Positions 9,799-46,210 of a stretch of DNA of 46,210 bases are shown in pieces; positions within the stretch are counted from its first letter, which is position 1; each line of letters begins with the position of its first letter. The stretch is from Patescibacteria group bacterium. GTDB lineage: Bacteria > Patescibacteriota > Patescibacteriia > Patescibacteriales > VMTK01. The notes beneath the pieces were generated by a model that was given only the letters and a program-made list of their open reading frames with translations, was not told the origin of the DNA and searched no databases. A program made the position numbers and the translations under genes. Location: contig JAHIME010000023.1 of NCBI GenBank assembly GCA_018896595.1, positions 1-46,210 on the forward strand. Direction: 5' to 3'.

Positions 9799-9869
9799 GG
9801 GGATATAGTAAAATGGTATTACGTGGCATTCGCATTGCCAAGGTCCGGGTTCGACTCCCGGTATCTCCA
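9799..9869 (+). tRNA. tRNA-Ala (anticodon CGC)
   Basis: Hand-folded cloverleaf. Acceptor stem GGGGATA/TATCTCC with a G3:U70 pair, anticodon loop TTCGCAT, T arm CCGGG-TTCGACT-CCCGG. Confidence 0.85.
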
Positions 9870-9892
9870 CCGGATAATTTAATTTAAATTTT

Positions 9893-9966
9893 CGGGGTGT
9901 GGCCTAGTGGCTTAGGGCGCAGTGTTCGGGACGCTGAGGTCGGAGGTTCAAATCCTCTCACCCCGA
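9893..9966 (+). tRNA. tRNA-Pro (anticodon CGG)
   Basis: Acceptor stem CGGGGTG/CACCCCG, anticodon stem CAGTG/CGCTG with loop TTCGGGA, T loop TTCAAAT. Confidence 0.85.
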
Positions 9967-23509: not shown

Positions 23510-23584
23510 TGGTCGGAGCGCCGGGAATTGAACCCGGTTCACAGGACCCCCAGCCCTGCGTAATAACCGTTATACCACGCTCCG
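23510..23584 (-). tRNA. tRNA-Pro (anticodon GGG), CCA encoded
   Basis: The reverse complement reads CGGAGCG...CGCTCCG-A-CCA. Anticodon stem CAGGG/TCCTG with loop CTGGGGG, T arm CCGGG-TTCAATT-CCCGG. Confidence 0.85.
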
Positions 23585-23721: not shown

Positions 23722-24154
23722 ATATCAGGGCAAGCGGATAGCCGCTCCGGTTATACCGGAGAGGAAAGTCCGGACTCCTCCTGTCCCTTATTAGGGGCAG
23801 GGTCGCGGCAGTGGGTAATACCCACCGGTTTGGATTTCAAATATCGTTTTTGATATTTGATTTTAGGATTAGGGAAAGTGCCACAGAGACAATACTACTC
23901 CGGTTTTACCGGAGCAAAGGTGAAAAGTGTTAAGGTGTATAAATTACTAAGGATATCCTTAATTTATGCTGCTTAACTCGCCCTCTGGCGACAGAGCGCG
24001 CGCGGCAAACCCTGCCTGGAGCAAGAGCAAACCTTTCGGCGATGCCGGAAGATGAAAAGTGGCTCGCATGAGCCTAAAAGCAATTTTAGGCCCAGATAAA
24101 TGGCTATCGTCCCATTGCGGGATACAGAATCCGGCTTATAGCTTGCCTTGATAT
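23722..24154 (+). ncRNA. rnpB: RNase P RNA (bacterial type A)
   Basis: P4 halves GAGGAAAGTCCGGAC and ACAGAATCCGGCTTA. P1 pairing ATATCAGGGCAAGC / GCTTGCCTTGATAT. Confidence 0.9.
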
Positions 24155-32539: not shown

Positions 32540-33526
32540 ATGAGTTACGCGCTAACAATCGGCTTTATCACATACGGCAAATCTACGGCAAAGTATTTGC
32601 CTTATTTTTTATCCAGTTTAAAGGGGCAGACTTTTAAAGATTTTAATATTTTGGTTTTTGACAATACGGAAGAGGCGGAAAACGAAAATGCGCTATATAT
32701 CAGGAATAATTATCCTGAAATTGAGATTGCGCGCGGAAACGGCAATTTGGGCTTCGCGGCGGCCTTTAATAGATTGATAAATAAGGCAAAAGGCGGCGGC
32801 GCGGAATATTTTTTGGCGTTGAATCCGGACATGGTTTTGGAACCGGACGCGGTTGAAAAAATGGTAAAAGTATTGGAAGGAGATAGCGGTTTGGGGTCGG
32901 TTTGCCCGAAAATATTAAAATGGAACTTTGAAAACAACAAAAAAACAAGCATAATTGACAGTTGCGGAATTAAAGTGAAATCCGGTTTGAGATTTTTTGA
33001 TTTGGGCCAGAACAAGTTTGACAAAGGGCAGTTTAACAATGCGGAAATTTTAGGCCCGTCAGGCGCGGCGGCGATGTATCGCATAAGCGTGTTGGAAAAA
33101 GTAATGATTAATCCCCCCCACCTCCCCCTTGCGAAGGGGGGCGATCAATATTTTGACGAGCTGATGTTTATGTATAAAGAAGACTGCGATTTGGCTTACA
33201 GATTATTTTTAGCCGGATATAGATCAAAATGCGTCGCGGACGCGGTAATTTATCACGATCGAACAACATACGGCAAAGGCGAAGGCGATTTGCAAGTTGC
33301 GTTTAACCGCAAAGGCAAAAGCAGGCAAGTGAAAAAATGGGCGTTCCTGCATCAACAGATAATTTTCATCAAGTATTGGAAATTGCAGAGTTTTTGGAAT
33401 AAACTGGCAATAATTTGGTATGAGATAAAAATGATTATTTTTATTTTATTATTTGAACAGTATTTGTTAGGGGAATTATTAAATTTATGGAAAATAAAAA
33501 AAGAAATAATAATAAGACAAAAATAA
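32540..33526 (+). CDS. glycosyltransferase family 2
   Basis: FDN/NxGFA-type N-terminal region (VFDNT...GNLGFAAAFN) and a C-terminal TM segment. Confidence 0.8.
   Translation: MSYALTIGFITYGKSTAKYLPYFLSSLKGQTFKDFNILVFDNTEEAENENALYIRNNYPEIEIARGNGNLGFAAAFNRLINKAKGGGAEYFLALNPDMVLEPDAVEKMVKVLEGDSGLGSVCPKILKWNFENNKKTSIIDSCGIKVKSGLRFFDLGQNKFDKGQFNNAEILGPSGAAAMYRISVLEKVMINPPHLPLAKGGDQYFDELMFMYKEDCDLAYRLFLAGYRSKCVADAVIYHDRTTYGKGEGDLQVAFNRKGKSRQVKKWAFLHQQIIFIKYWKLQSFWNKLAIIWYEIKMIIFILLFEQYLLGELLNLWKIKKEIIIRQK
33111..33146. repeat. C-run/TTGCGAA/G-run hairpin element inserted in frame (ATC-flanked)
   Basis: ATC (33111-33113), then 30 nt ccccccacctcccccttgcgaaggggggcg, then ATC (33144-33146). Read as NPPHLPLAKGGD. 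Same family as 838-902. Confidence 0.75.
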
Positions 33527-36159: not shown

Positions 36160-37044
36160 CTATTTTTTTTGCGCGACGCCTATCTTCCACACACCTTTTT
36201 CAAGGAAGGCCTCTATTGTTTGGCGGCTTGCCTTATTAATCAAATTAGAGTGTGATATTTTATTTATTTTCGCGTATTCCGCGAGCGTCATAATATGCGC
36301 GCCCTCCAGATACGCGAGCCTCTTGTGGTAACTGTTGGTAAGCGCTTTTCCTACTATTTCTTCCATAATAGTAGTCGCGCCTTTTTCATCAAATTCTTTA
36401 AACGCTTCGTAATATTTCTTTCTGTCAATAAATTTTATGTTTATTGGAACAAACCCTTCTCGTATTAACAAATAGTTGTTTATAACACGCCCAATGCGAC
36501 CATTGCCATCGCAAAATGGATGAGTGTATTCAAAAGCAAGATGCAATCCCGCTATCCTTTTAATTATATTTTCATGACTCGCAGCATTATACTCGGACAA
36601 CATTTTTTTCAGACGACCCGCCACTTCTTTGGGGTTAGGAGCAATATGACTGCCGACACGCACAAATTCATTGTCTTTTCTAAACCTCCCGGCAATATCG
36701 TCACGAATATTTGAAATCAACATTTTATGAAGTGATAAAATTACCTCAAGAGTAAGCTCTTGCTCCTTAGCTCCTTTGTCAATATATGATACAACTTGCG
36801 CGAGATTTTTTGCCTCAAAAATTTCTCGTTCAGTGATATATCTGTCCAAATCTATTTGCAAAAGTATTTTCTCTGTTTCCTCAAGAGTAAGAGTGCTGTT
36901 TTCAATGGCGTTAGAGTTATATACCTGTTCGGCCACCTCCGCCTCGTTCAATAATTTTAACAGCGCCTGTTTGCCAACAGACGCAGTATAATAGCGTTCT
37001 CTTAAACGAGAGATTGTGTTAAAAATATGTAATACTTTTGCCAT
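36160..37044 (-). CDS. Fic/DOC-family protein
   Basis: Fic motif HPFCDGNGRIGR. Confidence 0.85.
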   Translation of the reverse strand: MAKVLHIFNTISRLRERYYTASVGKQALLKLLNEAEVAEQVYNSNAIENSTLTLEETEKILLQIDLDRYITEREIFEAKNLAQVVSYIDKGAKEQELTLEVILSLHKMLISNIRDDIAGRFRKDNEFVRVGSHIAPNPKEVAGRLKKMLSEYNAASHENIIKRIAGLHLAFEYTHPFCDGNGRIGRVINNYLLIREGFVPINIKFIDRKKYYEAFKEFDEKGATTIMEEIVGKALTNSYHKRLAYLEGAHIMTLAEYAKINKISHSNLINKASRQTIEAFLEKGVWKIGVAQKK

Positions 37045-37080: not shown

Positions 37081-37108
37081 ATTTTATACCCTTTTCACTC
37101 TTTTGTCA
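37081..37108 (-). promoter_or_regulatory. candidate promoter of the Fic gene
   Basis: On the minus strand: TTGACA (37108-37103), 16-nt spacer, TAAAAT (37086-37081). Confidence 0.45.
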
Positions 37109-37110
37109 AG

Positions 37111-37154
37111 ATAACCGTGAAAAACTGTAAAAAAAGAGCGAATTTCACGGTTAT
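37111..37154. repeat. perfect 12-bp inverted repeat abutting the -35 box
   Basis: ATAACCGTGAAA (37111-37122), 20-nt spacer, TTTCACGGTTAT (37143-37154). Confidence 0.7.
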
Positions 37155-37363
37155 GCTTTAATTTTATTTTCCAAGAAATAATTTAATATCATTGTAGGAA
37201 CGCGGACAAATTTCGTATTTTTTAAGTTTGTGGATTGGTATAAAAGCGTAACCGCTTTAGTATTGCCGCCACGAAATAAAAGTAAGAATGTTTTATCCTT
37301 CGGATTAAATATTATTCCTCCCGCGTAAAATATATCCGGTATTTCTTTTTGATATTTAAACAT
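37151..37363 (-). CDS. doubtful 70-aa ORF, possibly a Nudix N-terminal fragment
   Basis: YAGGIIFNPKDKTFLLLFRGGN resembles a Nudix N-terminus, but no Nudix box follows. The ORF overlaps the degenerate attC-like element A0. Confidence 0.3.
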   Translation of the reverse strand: MFKYQKEIPDIFYAGGIIFNPKDKTFLLLFRGGNTKAVTLLYQSTNLKNTKFVRVPTMILNYFLENKIKA

Positions 37364-37420
37364 AAAATTAGAGAGTTACTATTGATAGGTGGAACCGGAT
37401 ATTCCGTGTTATCGGATGTA
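37312..37420. repeat. attC-like element A0 (degenerate left arm)
   Basis: The right arm CCGGATATTCCG-T-GTT-ATCG-GATGTA (37395-37420) is intact. The left arm keeps ATATCCGG, but AAC is replaced by CGC. Confidence 0.45.
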
Positions 37421-37912: not shown

Positions 37913-38032
37913 TTCCTTTTCTTTTTTCCGACAGCAGTCGGAATTGTTTTAAAAAATTTTCAAATTTCTTTTTCCGTTTTGGATTTTGGGCAGAGGGGCT
38001 GGGGGTGAATGCCCCGAAGCCAAGACTCCTTA

Positions 38033-39723: not shown

Positions 39724-39757
39724 TAAATCGTTTTCGTAGCGGAGCGGAGAAAACACC
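39724..39757. repeat. 34-nt block identical to 43891-43924
   Basis: taaatcgttttcgtagcggagcggagaaaacacc contains the hairpin GTTTTC-N13-GAAAAC. On the minus strand it lies 10 nt upstream of the start codon at 39713. Confidence 0.8.
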
Positions 39758-39842
39758 ATATACCCCCCCCTAAATAATTAAAAATAAAATTTGTTCATTA
39801 CAGAAAAGTGTCGCCCGCCACAGCGGGCGAAAAAGAAAAGCA

Positions 39843-40051
39843 TATTTCATATAACGTATCCGAGTATGCGAAGTTCGCTTTTCGGATTTAATGAATTAAT
39901 TATGTTAATTGGCTTAATCCTATTTTATCGCACTATTCCTGAAATTACCACCTATCGGAGAAAAGCGAATTTGGGTCGAGAAAATTTTTCACTCCTTGAA
40001 ATATAACTGATGAAAAATTTTTGAGCCGCATGTGCCGTGTTGTCTGATGTA
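39843..40051. repeat. attC-like element A2 (long, 209 nt)
   Basis: Left arm TATTTC-ATAT-AAC-GTAT-CCGAGTATGCG. Right arm CGCATGTGCCG-T-GTT-GTCT-GATGTA. Inner stem TTCGCTTTTC/GAAAAGCGAA. A 29-nt block (39969-39997) is identical to 46179-46207. Confidence 0.65.
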
Positions 40052-40095
40052 TTTTTTCATCTTCTATTTTATTGGCACAAACTTTGCTTGTTCTA

Positions 40096-40176
40096 AAAGA
40101 AAATTCGATTTTTAAATTTAAAGTTTTTGTTTTGCCGAATGGCAAAACGATTATTTGGGGGCAATTTAATTTTTTA
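40096..40176. repeat. left copy of the ~80-bp inverted repeat bracketing the AlaX-like gene
   Basis: A 33-nt block (40096-40128) and a 19-nt block (40149-40167) are exact reverse complements of 40901-40933 and 40872-40890. A private hairpin GTTTTGCC-gaat-GGCAAAAC lies between the two blocks. Confidence 0.85.
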
Positions 40177-40180
40177 TTTT

Positions 40181-40849
40181 TTATTTGAGTTTGATGTTTA
40201 TGGTTGGCATGCCTTTCTTCTTATTATATTCAATCTCAACTATGCCTATCTCAGAAATGTTTTTAACATGCGTTCCGCCACAAGGAATTTTGTAACCAAG
40301 ACATTCCCACCAACGAAATCCTTTCTTTTCAGTATCAGGATAAGTTTTAACATCCGCCCCTGATGAAATAGCCTCACGAAAAACCTCATTCGTTTTTTCA
40401 ACTAGCTCGAGCGTTATTTCATCGCTTTCATATCTATTAAAAACAAAGCCGTCTTGAATATCTGAGACTTTCGGAAACGGCAAAGACTTGCCAGCAGTTT
40501 TTTCAAGTAAGCAATGATGCAAATGAGCAGCAGTGTGTAGTTTCATCTGTCTGTTGCGAAATTCCCAGTTAAGTTTGCATAACACCTTTTGACCTTTAAC
40601 ATCTTCCGGAATCTTTTCGGTCGTTATTATGATAATGCCATCTTCGTTGTAGGGGTCTTTTAAAGTATCAGTAACATTATAATTTGAGCCATTGATGACA
40701 AATGTACCCTTATCACCTTTCTGTCCTCCCCCACGAGGGTAGAAAATATTATCAGCGACCTGAACACAGTTCTGGTCATTTTCGGTAAATGCCCCCGTGA
40801 TAGTTGTGTTGATTTCTGTTAAATACTGATCTTCGTAAAATTTGTGCAT
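40181..40849 (-). CDS. AlaX-like protein (alanyl-tRNA synthetase editing-domain / metal-dependent hydrolase family)
   Basis: HTAAHLHH (HxxxH) and CGGTHV motifs. Confidence 0.8.
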   Translation of the reverse strand: MHKFYEDQYLTEINTTITGAFTENDQNCVQVADNIFYPRGGGQKGDKGTFVINGSNYNVTDTLKDPYNEDGIIIITTEKIPEDVKGQKVLCKLNWEFRNRQMKLHTAAHLHHCLLEKTAGKSLPFPKVSDIQDGFVFNRYESDEITLELVEKTNEVFREAISSGADVKTYPDTEKKGFRWWECLGYKIPCGGTHVKNISEIGIVEIEYNKKKGMPTINIKLK

Positions 40850-40862
40850 AGTTTTTGTGAAT

Positions 40863-40933
40863 TAAAAAATAAAATTGCCCCCAAATAATCCGCGAAGCGG
40901 AAAAACTTTAAATTTAAAAATCGAATTTTCTTT
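40863..40933. repeat. right copy of the inverted repeat bracketing the AlaX-like gene
   Basis: See 40096-40176. The private central hairpin here is CCGC-gaa-GCGG. Confidence 0.85.
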
Positions 40934-40982
40934 CTTTGTTTATATCACCAAACTCCTAAAATTACCACCAAAGATGAAAAAA

Positions 40983-41094
40983 TATTTCAGACAACGTATC
41001 GCTATATCCGAAGTTTTTTAGAGCGAAGCGAAAAAGAATTTGCGCGTAGGCTTTCGAAAAAGCCGCAACCGGATATAGCGTGTTATATGATGTA
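40983..41094. repeat. attC-like element A3
   Basis: Left arm TATTTC-AGAC-AAC-GTAT-CGCTATATCCG. Right arm CGGATATAGCG-T-GTT-ATAT-GATGTA, with perfect 11-bp stem pairing. Confidence 0.7.
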
Positions 41095-41222
41095 CATGTT
41101 TTCCTTTAATCCGCCTTAGGCGGATTGCTCTAAAAAAGAATTCAATTTTTTTTCGTTTTGGGCTTCGGGAAGAGGGGTTAGGGGTGAATTCCCGAAGCCC
41201 AAAACTCCTTAGCGTATTTGTT

Positions 41223-43890: not shown

Positions 43891-43924
43891 TAAATCGTTT
43901 TCGTAGCGGAGCGGAGAAAACACC
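43891..43924. repeat. 34-nt block identical to 39724-39757
   Basis: Same sequence. On the minus strand it lies 6 nt upstream of the start codon at 43884. Confidence 0.8.
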
Positions 43925-44005
43925 CTATTTCCCCTCATTAAATTAATTAAAAAACAAAATTGAATTCTTTTTTAAGAGCTGGGCGAAGCCCAAAAGGAAA
44001 ACATG

Positions 44006-45519: not shown

Positions 45520-46035
45520 ATATTTTGCCTAACGTATCTCGATATCTGAAGTTTTTATTTTTCTCCTATGTTTTATTAGTAAAGAAAAAAATAAAAATTT
45601 GGGTGTAGCTAAAAAATAATTTATTTTCTCGTTCCAACCAAATCAAAGCCTTCAAAATGCACAGCGTCATCCATGAAAACCTCGATGACCTTATAGACAC
45701 CCTTGGTATACATAATGTTGTTATCTACAAAATGGGTGGCTTCTAAAATGACGATGCTCGCTTTGGGACGTGATAAAACCTCATTACCCTGAGTTTCAAT
45801 TAACGGAATAGATCCGTACAGCCAATAATTACGCTGGTCGCGTTTTAGAAAATCATAAGTTTGTCCTGCACGAAGGTCTTCAGGAATACATTCTTCGATT
45901 TTTCGACGGCCTTGTTTATGCTCCGAAATATTTCGTAAGGCCAGGTCGGGATTGAACTCAACTTTGATACCCATAAGCGTAAGAGAAAATAAATTATTTT
46001 TTAGCGTAACCAGATATCGCGTGTTAGATGATGTG
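45520..46035. repeat. attC-like element A6, with arms about 460 nt apart and an ORF in the loop
   Basis: Left arm TATTTT-GCCT-AAC-GTAT-CTCGATATCTG (45520-45547). Right arm CAGATATCGCG-T-GTT-AGAT-GATGTG (46011-46035). 10 of 11 stem positions pair. Confidence 0.55.
45621..45974 (-). CDS. hypothetical protein (117 aa) located inside element A6
   Basis: The start was set at the Met at 45974. The track start at 46061 would read across the arms of A6 and A7. Confidence 0.5.
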   Translation of the reverse strand: MGIKVEFNPDLALRNISEHKQGRRKIEECIPEDLRAGQTYDFLKRDQRNYWLYGSIPLIETQGNEVLSRPKASIVILEATHFVDNNIMYTKGVYKVIEVFMDDAVHFEGFDLVGTRK

Positions 46036-46058: not shown

Positions 46059-46210
46059 CATTTCATCTAACGTCTACGCATCATCTGAAGTCCCGCACCT
46101 TTAATGGCAGAAAACTTTGATTAGCGTATTATTTTGATTAACGAGTTATATTTGGATTATACCACAGGCTGGTGCGGGATTTGGGTCGAGAAAATTTTTC
46201 ACTCCTTATT
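46059..46210. repeat. attC-like element A7 (left half only, truncated by the window end)
   Basis: Left arm CATTTC-ATCT-AAC-GTCT-ACGCATCATCTG-AAG. Inner stem TCCCGCACC/GGTGCGGGA. Followed by the ATTTGGGTCGAG... block shared with A2. Confidence 0.6.

Follow-up and report, generated by a model that had tools for sequence, protein, structure and literature searches.

Long inverted repeats around an AlaX-like gene as the complementary leader and trailer of a cassette in an integron-like array of a Patescibacteria group bacterium

A 46,210-nucleotide stretch of DNA from a Patescibacteria group bacterium (contig JAHIME010000023.1, positions 1 to 46,210; hereafter the window) contains, on its minus strand, a gene for an AlaX-like protein that is enclosed by long inverted repeats. 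We find that these repeats are very probably the leader and the trailer of one gene cassette in an integron-like array, the leader being complementary to the trailer. We further propose, tentatively, that this pairing acts on single-stranded cassette DNA during recombination, and the explanation taken as a whole is the one towards which we lean. A role at the level of DNA is suggested because the cassettes carry the TTRRRY signature, because their hairpins covary, because the repeats are anchored at the crossover, and because cassettes devoid of any open reading frame (ORF) have them as well.

The repeats form three pairs of arms, an outer pair a and the pairs b and c nearer to the gene (Table 1). 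A first-pass annotation of the window had reported a perfect 33-nt inverted pair, and the repeat finder returned b at the same coordinates with 100% complementarity. The 19 exact nucleotides it had given for the second pair are there as well, within a pair that is in fact longer (31 nt at 94%), while the outer pair a was missing from its description. Its distances of 5 nt to the stop codon and 13 nt to the start codon were approximate: the gap between the 31-nt arms and the ORF is 1 nt at the stop codon and 10 nt at the ATG. It had also taken the repeats to be nonrandom, and rightly so, since the 33-mer, with up to three mismatches allowed, matches the window at its two arms only, and 100 shuffles gave an expectation of 0.00.

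On the sense strand, the leader runs from GTTGTCT-GAAATA through block a, a 37-nt unpaired segment, block b, a small hairpin (H1), block c, and 10 nt to the ATG. The trailer consists of block c', a second small hairpin (H2), block b', a 32-nt unpaired segment, and block a', followed by TACATC-AGACAAC, which ends in the R'' box of the cassette's own attC-like site. Complementarity therefore begins at the crossover core sites (GTTGTCT/AGACAAC) and extends inward to the ORF. There is one hairpin per arm, between blocks b and c, and both hairpins could be read in the sequence, each copy having its own, as had been described previously. Each arm can be written as AAGT-TTTT-hairpin-ATTATTTGGGGG, which resembles the AAGT-hairpin-ATTTGGG core of the attC sites of the array, a core that marks six of the seven sites. 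The minimum-energy structure predicted for the single-stranded DNA (ssDNA) is a panhandle with a four-way junction (z = -7.7), and the predicted RNA fold is the same panhandle with a four-way junction (z = -7.6). No Rfam family matches the repeats or the attC-like sites, apart from a chance mir-31 match (E=0.11). The unpaired leader segment is 84% conserved in a related cassette (L027; loci fetched for comparison are given L numbers) and, by the repeat finder, 77% similar to positions 39923-39952 within the attC of the AlaX cassette itself. It contains an extended -10-like TGATATAAA (40939-40947), spotted by eye upstream of block b, which we infer might be a promoter element; a consensus promoter scan of the sense strand of the leader gave no sigma-70 match.

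Pairing between leader and trailer is a property of the cassette family. We compared each leader with each reverse-complemented trailer in the contig and scored cognate and noncognate combinations. Cognate scores were 95 for AlaX, 63 for NUDIX, 63 for Fic, 41 for the 63-aa cassette, 39 for the 232-aa cassette, and 26 for EamA, with a background of at most 31; for the AlaX leader, the cognate score of 95 compares with at most 27 for noncognate trailers. Cognate pairs stand far above noncognate ones in six of the seven cassettes, also after the conserved 14 nt beside the core have been trimmed. The same design recurs in a LysE cassette (L031), in a 189-aa cassette (L029), and in the 148-aa, metallophosphoesterase, and 123-aa cassettes of L095, and its longest version is that of the AlaX cassette, with blocks of 25 (a), 33 (b), and 31 nt (c). 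At the other extreme, ORF-less mini-cassettes are bare 15-18-bp hairpins made of the R box plus 8-11 bp. Because these mini-cassettes carry the outer stem, it would be independent of any mRNA.

In 11 of the 13 cassettes compared, the outer stem has a fixed 2-nt mismatch at positions +10/+11, counted from the G of GTTRRRY. In the AlaX cassette, it falls at window 40985-40986 and 40048-40049 and accounts for the two mismatches of repeat a. Where the leader reads G-N-AA-T-N, the trailer reads N-A-CA-N-C; the opposed bases are A-A/A-C on the sense strand, and on the antisense strand they are T-T/G-T. The leader–trailer stems have equal energies on the two strands (within ±2.5 kcal/mol), with no bias outside the conserved mismatch, in alignments that crossed unpaired segments.

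The array itself spans from ~37.4 kb to beyond the right end of the window at 46.2 kb, the contig ending within it ~780 bp further on, and all cassette ORFs lie on the minus strand. Half-sites of two kinds, A (RYYYAAC-GTAT-L-AAGT) and B (AAC-L-T-GTTRRRY-GATGTA), were mapped, seven of each and all on the plus strand; each A half-site pairs with the next B at a spacing of 60-150 nt or more. The resulting sites follow the plan RYYYAAC-A-L'' (11 nt), a branched loop with a conserved CCCAAAT, and L' (11 nt)-ATAC-GTTRRRY. L'' and L' are complementary at 11/11 positions in 10 of 12 sites, with 10 different sequences, and none of 150 noncognate pairs reaches 11/11. Since this inner-box pairing is complete across differing sequences, the sites are structure-defined hairpins of the attC type, i.e., the R''-L''...L'-R' palindromes that integrons recognize by structure. 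Moreover, in five of the seven window cassettes, the leader's core (TTRRRY) is complementary to the cassette's own R'', which is the signature of integron-type crossover at G|TT.

The limits of the AlaX cassette follow from this mapping: on the sense strand, it starts at the G|TT crossover (40995/40994) and ends with the G (39855) of its own attC, and the similarity between the window and L027 cassettes begins exactly at GTT. The first-pass annotation had placed the gene within a cassette between two attC-like sites, and half-sites were indeed mapped on both sides. We rejected two other ways of drawing the unit, an upstream attC plus ORF and a boundary at the conserved CCCAAAT, as the attC upstream of the window copy is unrelated to the one upstream of the L027 copy. 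The 5' half of the AlaX attC (39849-40045) is homologous to an intact 128-nt site in L027, and its 3' half is unrelated to that of L027.

How are cassette copies related to ordinary copies of the gene? We inspected 25 genome and 58 metagenome loci for AlaX relatives. The contigs that carry the closest relatives (85-95% identity) are short and are cassette arrays, and copies at or below 83% identity all have ordinary chromosomal surroundings, with neither flanking repeats nor attC-like sites. Chromosomal and cassette copies have only ~25 nt upstream of the ATG in common. Cassette AlaX is a narrow clade (window; L027/L028/L032; L029; L031), and all cassette copies have the repeats, which thus, across the sequences compared, go with cassette status. 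The first-pass annotation had reasoned that the same repeats around alaX outside any cassette would point to a regulatory or terminator role; the noncassette homologues of 77-83% identity have no such repeats. The AlaX cassette occurs in three array contexts, after the Fic cassette (window), after a 345-aa cassette (L027/L029/L032), and as the first cassette after an attI-like site (L031), and indirect evidence suggests that it is a mobile unit.

The flanks are strongly conserved, and their arms have changed in concert. Between the window and L027, the leader is 90.5% and the trailer 91.5% identical, compared with 56% at fourfold-degenerate sites; in the adjoining parts of the ORF, third positions are less conserved than the flank they lie next to. 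The 50-nt windows that contain the inner arms are the best-conserved part of the cassette (96-98% identical), the inner arms being more conserved than codon positions 1-2. Comparing window, L027, and L031, we count at least seven positions at which both arms are altered. Block a accounts for three of them, between window and L027, and block c for at least four, between L027 and L031; complementarity in block c is perfect over 30 nt in L027 and 28 nt in L031. In the window, both copies of block b include TCGA where the L027 arms mismatch each other at four positions.

A Pfam scan of the window found no recombinase, and the link to one rests on related contigs. In L031, AlaX is the first cassette beside a divergently transcribed fragment of a tyrosine recombinase, whose full-length relatives (283 aa) are very common in genomes of the Candidate Phyla Radiation (CPR), with more than 1100 relatives, mostly in CPR metagenome-assembled genomes (MAGs). 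The enzyme passes the XerA model (240 bits, cut-off 220) and fails TIGR02249 (216 vs 265, split match). Its alignment to archaeal XerA (4a8e) is continuous, and ~29 of its residues stand opposite ~71 of IntI4 (176-246), in the region of the integron-specific insertion; an IntI with the IntI-specific additional domain was thus not found beside the array. The gene sits in a conserved order (recombinase, GT2, GT2, NTP-transferase, PfkB), and on its divergent side, L095, L096, and L031 have an array of these attC-like sites, and in L091, L092, and L094 the contig breaks off within the first cassette. In L031, L091, L092, L094, L095, and L096, the start of the recombinase gene is preceded at 60-110 nt by a conserved attI-like junction, AAGTTCGCATATAASTA|GTTRRRY, so that in relatives, and only there, an attI-like site and a divergent recombinase gene stand at the array head. 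As judged from its sequence, the platform is integron-like in layout and Xer-like in enzyme, and it looks like an undescribed Xer-based, integron-like platform: in the searchable literature, we found no description of CPR integrons, Xer-type cassette arrays, or extended attC complementarity.

Table 1. Coordinates of the AlaX cassette, its parts, and the recombinase loci of related contigs (window positions unless a locus is named)
Feature	Position	Strand	Basis or remark
Whole AlaX cassette, crossover to crossover, 1140 nt	39855..40994	-	Half-site mapping; similarity to L027 starts at GTT
AlaX-M-like ORF, 222 aa (putative)	40181..40849	-	Pfam tRNA_SAD, NCBIfam, PDB 2e1b, zinc-site residues
Outer repeat a, arms, 25 nt, 92%	40039-40063 / 40971-40995		Repeat finder
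Repeat b, arms, 33 nt, 100% complementarity	40096-40128 / 40901-40933		Repeat finder
Repeat c, arms, 31 nt, 94%	40149-40179 / 40860-40890		Repeat finder
Leader arm a	40971..40995	-	5' core site GTTGTCT + conserved GAAATA + 12-nt cassette-specific extension
Unpaired leader-specific segment, 37 nt	40934..40970	-	Read from sequence
Leader arm b (33 nt, perfect)	40901..40933	-	Repeat finder + mismatch scan
Leader hairpin H1, CCGC-TTC-GCGG on sense strand (CCGC-GAA-GCGG in the first-pass annotation)	40890..40900	-	Terminator-like, then TTATTTGGGG
Leader arm c (31 nt, 94%), contains ATTTGGGGGCAA, ends 10 nt before ATG	40860..40890	-	Repeat finder
Trailer arm c, begins 1 nt past stop codon	40149..40179	-	Repeat finder
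Trailer hairpin H2, GTTTTGCC-GAAT-GGCAAAAC on plus strand, terminator-like on antisense strand	40129..40148	-	
Trailer arm b	40096..40128	-	Repeat finder + mismatch scan
Trailer arm a, ends TACATC + inverse core AGACAAC (R'') of own attC	40039..40063	-	Half-site mapping
Own attC-like site of AlaX cassette, 197 nt	39849..40045	-	Chimeric or decayed; L''/L' 7/11
attC-like site of upstream Fic cassette	40989..41088	-	R' = left boundary of AlaX cassette; L''/L' 11/11
Recombinase loci	L031:1-543; L091:83-934; L092:232-1086; L094:268-1119; L095:8001-8852; L096:2228-3079		

Long, partly perfect inverted repeats around a gene-sized segment are what one would expect of an invertible segment or of mobilization by a foldback or a pair of miniature inverted-repeat transposable elements (MITEs), which were the first-pass annotation's own suggestions. 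We regard this as highly improbable. Five independent contigs from different samples (window, L027, L028, L032, and L031) agree in orientation: in each, the CCGCTTCGCGG hairpin is on the side of the ATG. No invertase or transposase was found in or beside the AlaX cassette (ORF list and Pfam). There are no other or solo copies of blocks b and c in the window, in the 96 fetched loci, or in IMG/VR, no target-site duplication is seen in the sequence at the repeat ends, and the repeats are continuous with the core sites, into which they merge. A somewhat better, yet still quite unlikely, alternative is that the cassette ends are two opposed duplex sites for a Xer recombinase, as in pdif modules, and that no folding takes place. 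It would suit an associated recombinase that is XerA-like and lacks the IntI insertion, the alternation of site orientation along the array, and the presence of genes in both the ORF-side and the loop-side intervals, including a toxin–antitoxin pair. However, the ends are cassette-specific and complementary rather than versions of one consensus; no arm-spacer-arm palindrome was recognized within a single half-site, the half-sites being read by eye; the ORFs are co-oriented, and the array begins at an attI-like junction by a divergent recombinase gene, as in integrons; the site-specific covariation argues for folded sites; and blocks b and c much exceed the length of a binding site.

The most serious competitor, although we think it improbable, is an element that works in RNA or transcription. 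The 5' and 3' untranslated regions of AlaX would pair into a panhandle that protects the mRNA ends, lets a long array transcript be processed at an RNase III-type site, or masks a start that has no Shine–Dalgarno (SD) sequence; alternatively, two inward-facing terminator-like hairpins would insulate the ORF from outside transcription on either strand. The first-pass annotation had likewise considered an RNA stem enclosing the whole mRNA, and the part of that idea that concerns folding stands, since the transcript is predicted to adopt the panhandle. The inner arms do come within 10 nt of the ATG and 1 nt of the stop codon, the two small hairpins have terminator-like scores, each with TTATTTGGGG behind it pointing into the ORF, and with TGATATAAA upstream of block b, a transcript could span both arms; in addition, the high conservation covers unpaired parts, and block b is perfect despite the decayed attC. 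What speaks against it is that in every cassette complementarity starts exactly at the DNA crossover site, even in the ORF-less mini-cassettes. In two cassettes (L029 189-aa and L095 148-aa), 45-65 nt separate the leader arm from the ATG, a spacer that in L029 has a promoter-like TTTTCA-N17-TATAAT, so that mRNAs may omit the leader arm. There is no bias towards G-U wobble on the sense strand, where the conserved mismatch is A-A/A-C, and the chromosomal homologues of AlaX do without repeats.

More doubtful still is a historical footprint that has no present function, its arms being kept alike by arm-to-arm gene conversion. The gene would have been put into the loop of an ORF-less palindromic cassette, or the flanks would be an inverted duplication of attC-derived sequence. 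This accommodates the ORFs at hairpin tips elsewhere (a 117-aa ORF in the window and in L031, HicAB in L095), the existence of ORF-less hairpin cassettes, the resemblance of the arms to the attC core, and the native homologues that share only the short stretch before the ATG. The unrelated 189-aa cassette of L029 also carries the inner motif GGGGCAAATTTATTTTT in the same overall layout, which is the sole partial sharing we found, and the perfect block b of the window against four arm mismatches in L027 looks like conversion. On the other hand, flanks that are better conserved than synonymous sites, with inner arms that surpass even codon positions 1-2, point to current constraint; conversion keeps arms alike, but does not slow divergence between lineages; and no mechanism is known for insertion at a hairpin tip.

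Several points weigh against our own explanation. DNA folding and recombination are putative, and the predicted RNA fold is as good as that of ssDNA. The 473-aa cassette (K7) has no cognate signal above noise. The strand-asymmetry results (stem energies, attC polarity) give no consistent direction. The distance of blocks b and c from the crossover (55-145 nt) exceeds any plausible recombinase footprint. Identity of ~90% that includes unpaired segments hints at a sequence-specific reader, such as a promoter or a binding protein. The cassette's own attC appears decayed (L box 7/11), yet block b is perfect, which fits a function independent of mobility or a recent arm-to-arm conversion. Finally, third-position differences between window and L027 are unevenly spread over the ORF (39%, 24%, and 19% by thirds), and some exchange of the ORF possibly contributes to the contrast between flanks and synonymous sites.

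If the pairing acts on ssDNA as we propose, the attC stem of an excised circular cassette, in which the cassette's own ...ATAC-G would be joined to TTGTCTGAAATA, would be prolonged beyond the R box by a long duplex that reaches the ORF. The outer stem would then offer the recombinase, on the outer side of the cleavage and crossover site, a completely paired arm, which might matter for a Xer-like enzyme that lacks the domain with which classical integrases grip imperfect hairpins, and the longer stems of the AlaX cassette would stabilize the folded site. Within the array, the same pairing could draw the two boundary sites of a cassette together. Going further, we consider it an unlikely idea that the platform is a Xer-based proto-integron, in which a recombinase without the I2 insertion acts on fully paired hairpins, and in which palindromes, empty hairpin cassettes, and genes at hairpin tips record the birth of cassettes. 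The long duplex outward of the crossover would then have to come from each cassette, and a cassette would be born when a gene inserts into the loop of a pre-existing palindromic empty cassette.

The gene itself encodes a putative AlaX-M relative. The first-pass annotation had called it AlaX-like, and the profile searches it had called for agree: the match to Pfam tRNA_SAD is just above the cut-off, NCBIfam AlaXM matches at 2e-27 with 96 bits, below the curated cut-off of 300, and the AlaX-M of Pyrococcus horikoshii (PDB 2e1b) matches residues 4-205 with E=3e-19. Residues H105, H109, C190, and H194, corresponding to the zinc site (HxxxH, CxxxH), are invariant in 31 homologues. The product is best described as a divergent AlaX-M relative of a CPR-centered 222-aa subfamily: it shares with the P. 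horikoshii protein the length class, full-length similarity, and the HxxxH and CxxxH residues, and differs from it in its divergence, with an activity that is putative. No GGAGG-type SD was seen before the ATG, in line with what had been noted before, and the chromosomal homologues have none either. The remark that such a factor is an odd cargo seems overstated, as the 222-aa family is common as a chromosomal gene in CPR bacteria. In Uhrbacteria-type MAGs (L002:2500-2650, L003:3850-3990, and L007:3850-3990), a conserved GC-rich structured element (GGGGACACCA...GGCAGAGCTTCGGGTGGCA...) lies upstream of chromosomal AlaX homologues.

The attC-like sites have further features of their own. In integrons, extrahelical bases mark the recombinogenic bottom strand, which is antisense to the cassette genes. 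In the canonical bottom-strand layout (PMC5027507), the gene-sense strand has the additional bases on its 3' arm, and this is where they are found here (ATAC vs A, with an occasional extra G). By folding energy, the antisense strand is 5-14 kcal/mol better in 11 of 13 sites, so that the polarity criteria disagree. The attC of the AlaX cassette (39849-40045) and that of the NUDIX cassette (46069-46210) share 29 identical nucleotides (39969-39997 and 46179-46207) and a near-identical P2 hairpin up to CCCAAAT, after which they diverge; the AlaX attC of the window likewise departs from that of L027 directly after CCCAAAT. Because divergence sets in right after this motif in both comparisons, the attC sites are mosaics with a recurrent breakpoint at CCCAAAT.

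Genes also occur inside attC-like sites. The 117-aa ORF (45621-45973, minus strand) lies in the P2 loop of the attC at 45531-46027, between L'' and L', flanked by a perfect 23-nt inverted repeat (45608-45630 / 45983-46005); a 42-nt hairpin "cassette" with no ORF precedes it, and L031:2388-2767 is arranged in the same way. In L095 (5840-6400), a HicA/HicB-like pair lies within the attC of the metallophosphoesterase cassette. Two unrelated multigene cassettes, the 473-aa cassette and the three-ORF Fic cassette, share a 51-nt element at 88% identity (39724-39774 and 43891-43941), a GTTTTC...GAAAAC hairpin that overlaps the start of the first ORF of each, and have related GC-rich hairpins (GGGGTGAAT.CCCGAAGCC) after their last ORFs (37975-38030 and 41150-41205). 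At its distal end (37100-37420), the array looks decayed: the B half-site of the last site (37395-37420) has by eye no proper partner, and GCG replaces GTT. Adjoining it are a Fic gene (36160-37044) and two ORFs without a Pfam match; a 294-aa ORF beside the array, tried as an integrase, was rejected since Pfam assigns it to Fic.

Scans of viral collections (IMG/VR) yielded no copy of block c and one phage-like contig that bears an attC (L090:10693-10796; IMGVR_UViG_3300001336_000172). This contig has large minus-strand ORFs, one of them (560 aa) ending at the site. At its end, the contig carries a single intact attC of this family and then a cassette end that is similar to the leader of the window's 473-aa cassette. 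The left 34 kb of the window are ordinary chromosomal sequence on the plus strand, with a bacterial RNase P RNA of class A and three tRNA genes (23726-24154, 9799-9966, and 23513-23584). Copies of a GC-rich hairpin, CCCCCCTTGCGAAGGGGGG, occur in AT-rich sequence far from the array (817-901 and 33093-33146).

The locus bears on two open questions, the origin of cassette recombination sites and the evolution of integron integrases from Xer-type enzymes. It offers a cassette family in which the recombination palindrome covers the whole noncoding part and is conserved, coevolving, and present only in cassette form, and a natural comparison between the cassette copies of a gene and its ordinary chromosomal copies. 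For annotation, it suggests that long inverted repeats around small CPR genes may mark cassette boundaries rather than switches or transposons.

Among known systems, the stems that flank RNAs, such as those of rRNA operon processing or the Correia-type repeats cut by RNase III, likewise enclose a gene by long-distance pairing; here, the pairing, as predicted from the sequence, is anchored at DNA recombination sites and also occurs in ORF-less cassettes. The pdif modules of Acinetobacter, plasmid genes between inverted XerC/XerD sites, have in common with our array a Xer-family recombinase, alternating inverted sites, and toxin–antitoxin cargo. Their sites, however, are 28-bp consensus duplexes (two 11-bp inverted arms and a 6-bp spacer), whereas those described here are long hairpin palindromes with site-specific covariation, in a chromosomal array of co-oriented genes anchored by a recombinase gene. 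With class 1 mobile integrons and the chromosomal integrons of Vibrio, the array shares co-oriented single-gene cassettes separated by RYYYAAC...GTTRRRY imperfect palindromes with covarying L boxes, the match of TTRRRY to the cassette's own inverse core, the occurrence of one cassette at different array positions, and, in relatives, an attI-like start beside a divergent tyrosine recombinase gene. To our knowledge, classical integron cassettes show little complementarity beyond their 7-bp cores. In the family described here, by contrast, the palindrome extends 20-140 nt outward from the R box into leader and trailer, with a conserved 6-nt extension (GAAATA/TACATC) that has the fixed 2-nt mismatch; the branched loop carries CCCAAAT, genes can occupy the attC loop, and the recombinase is a XerA-like protein of 283 aa that lacks the IntI-specific insertion (I2 helix region).

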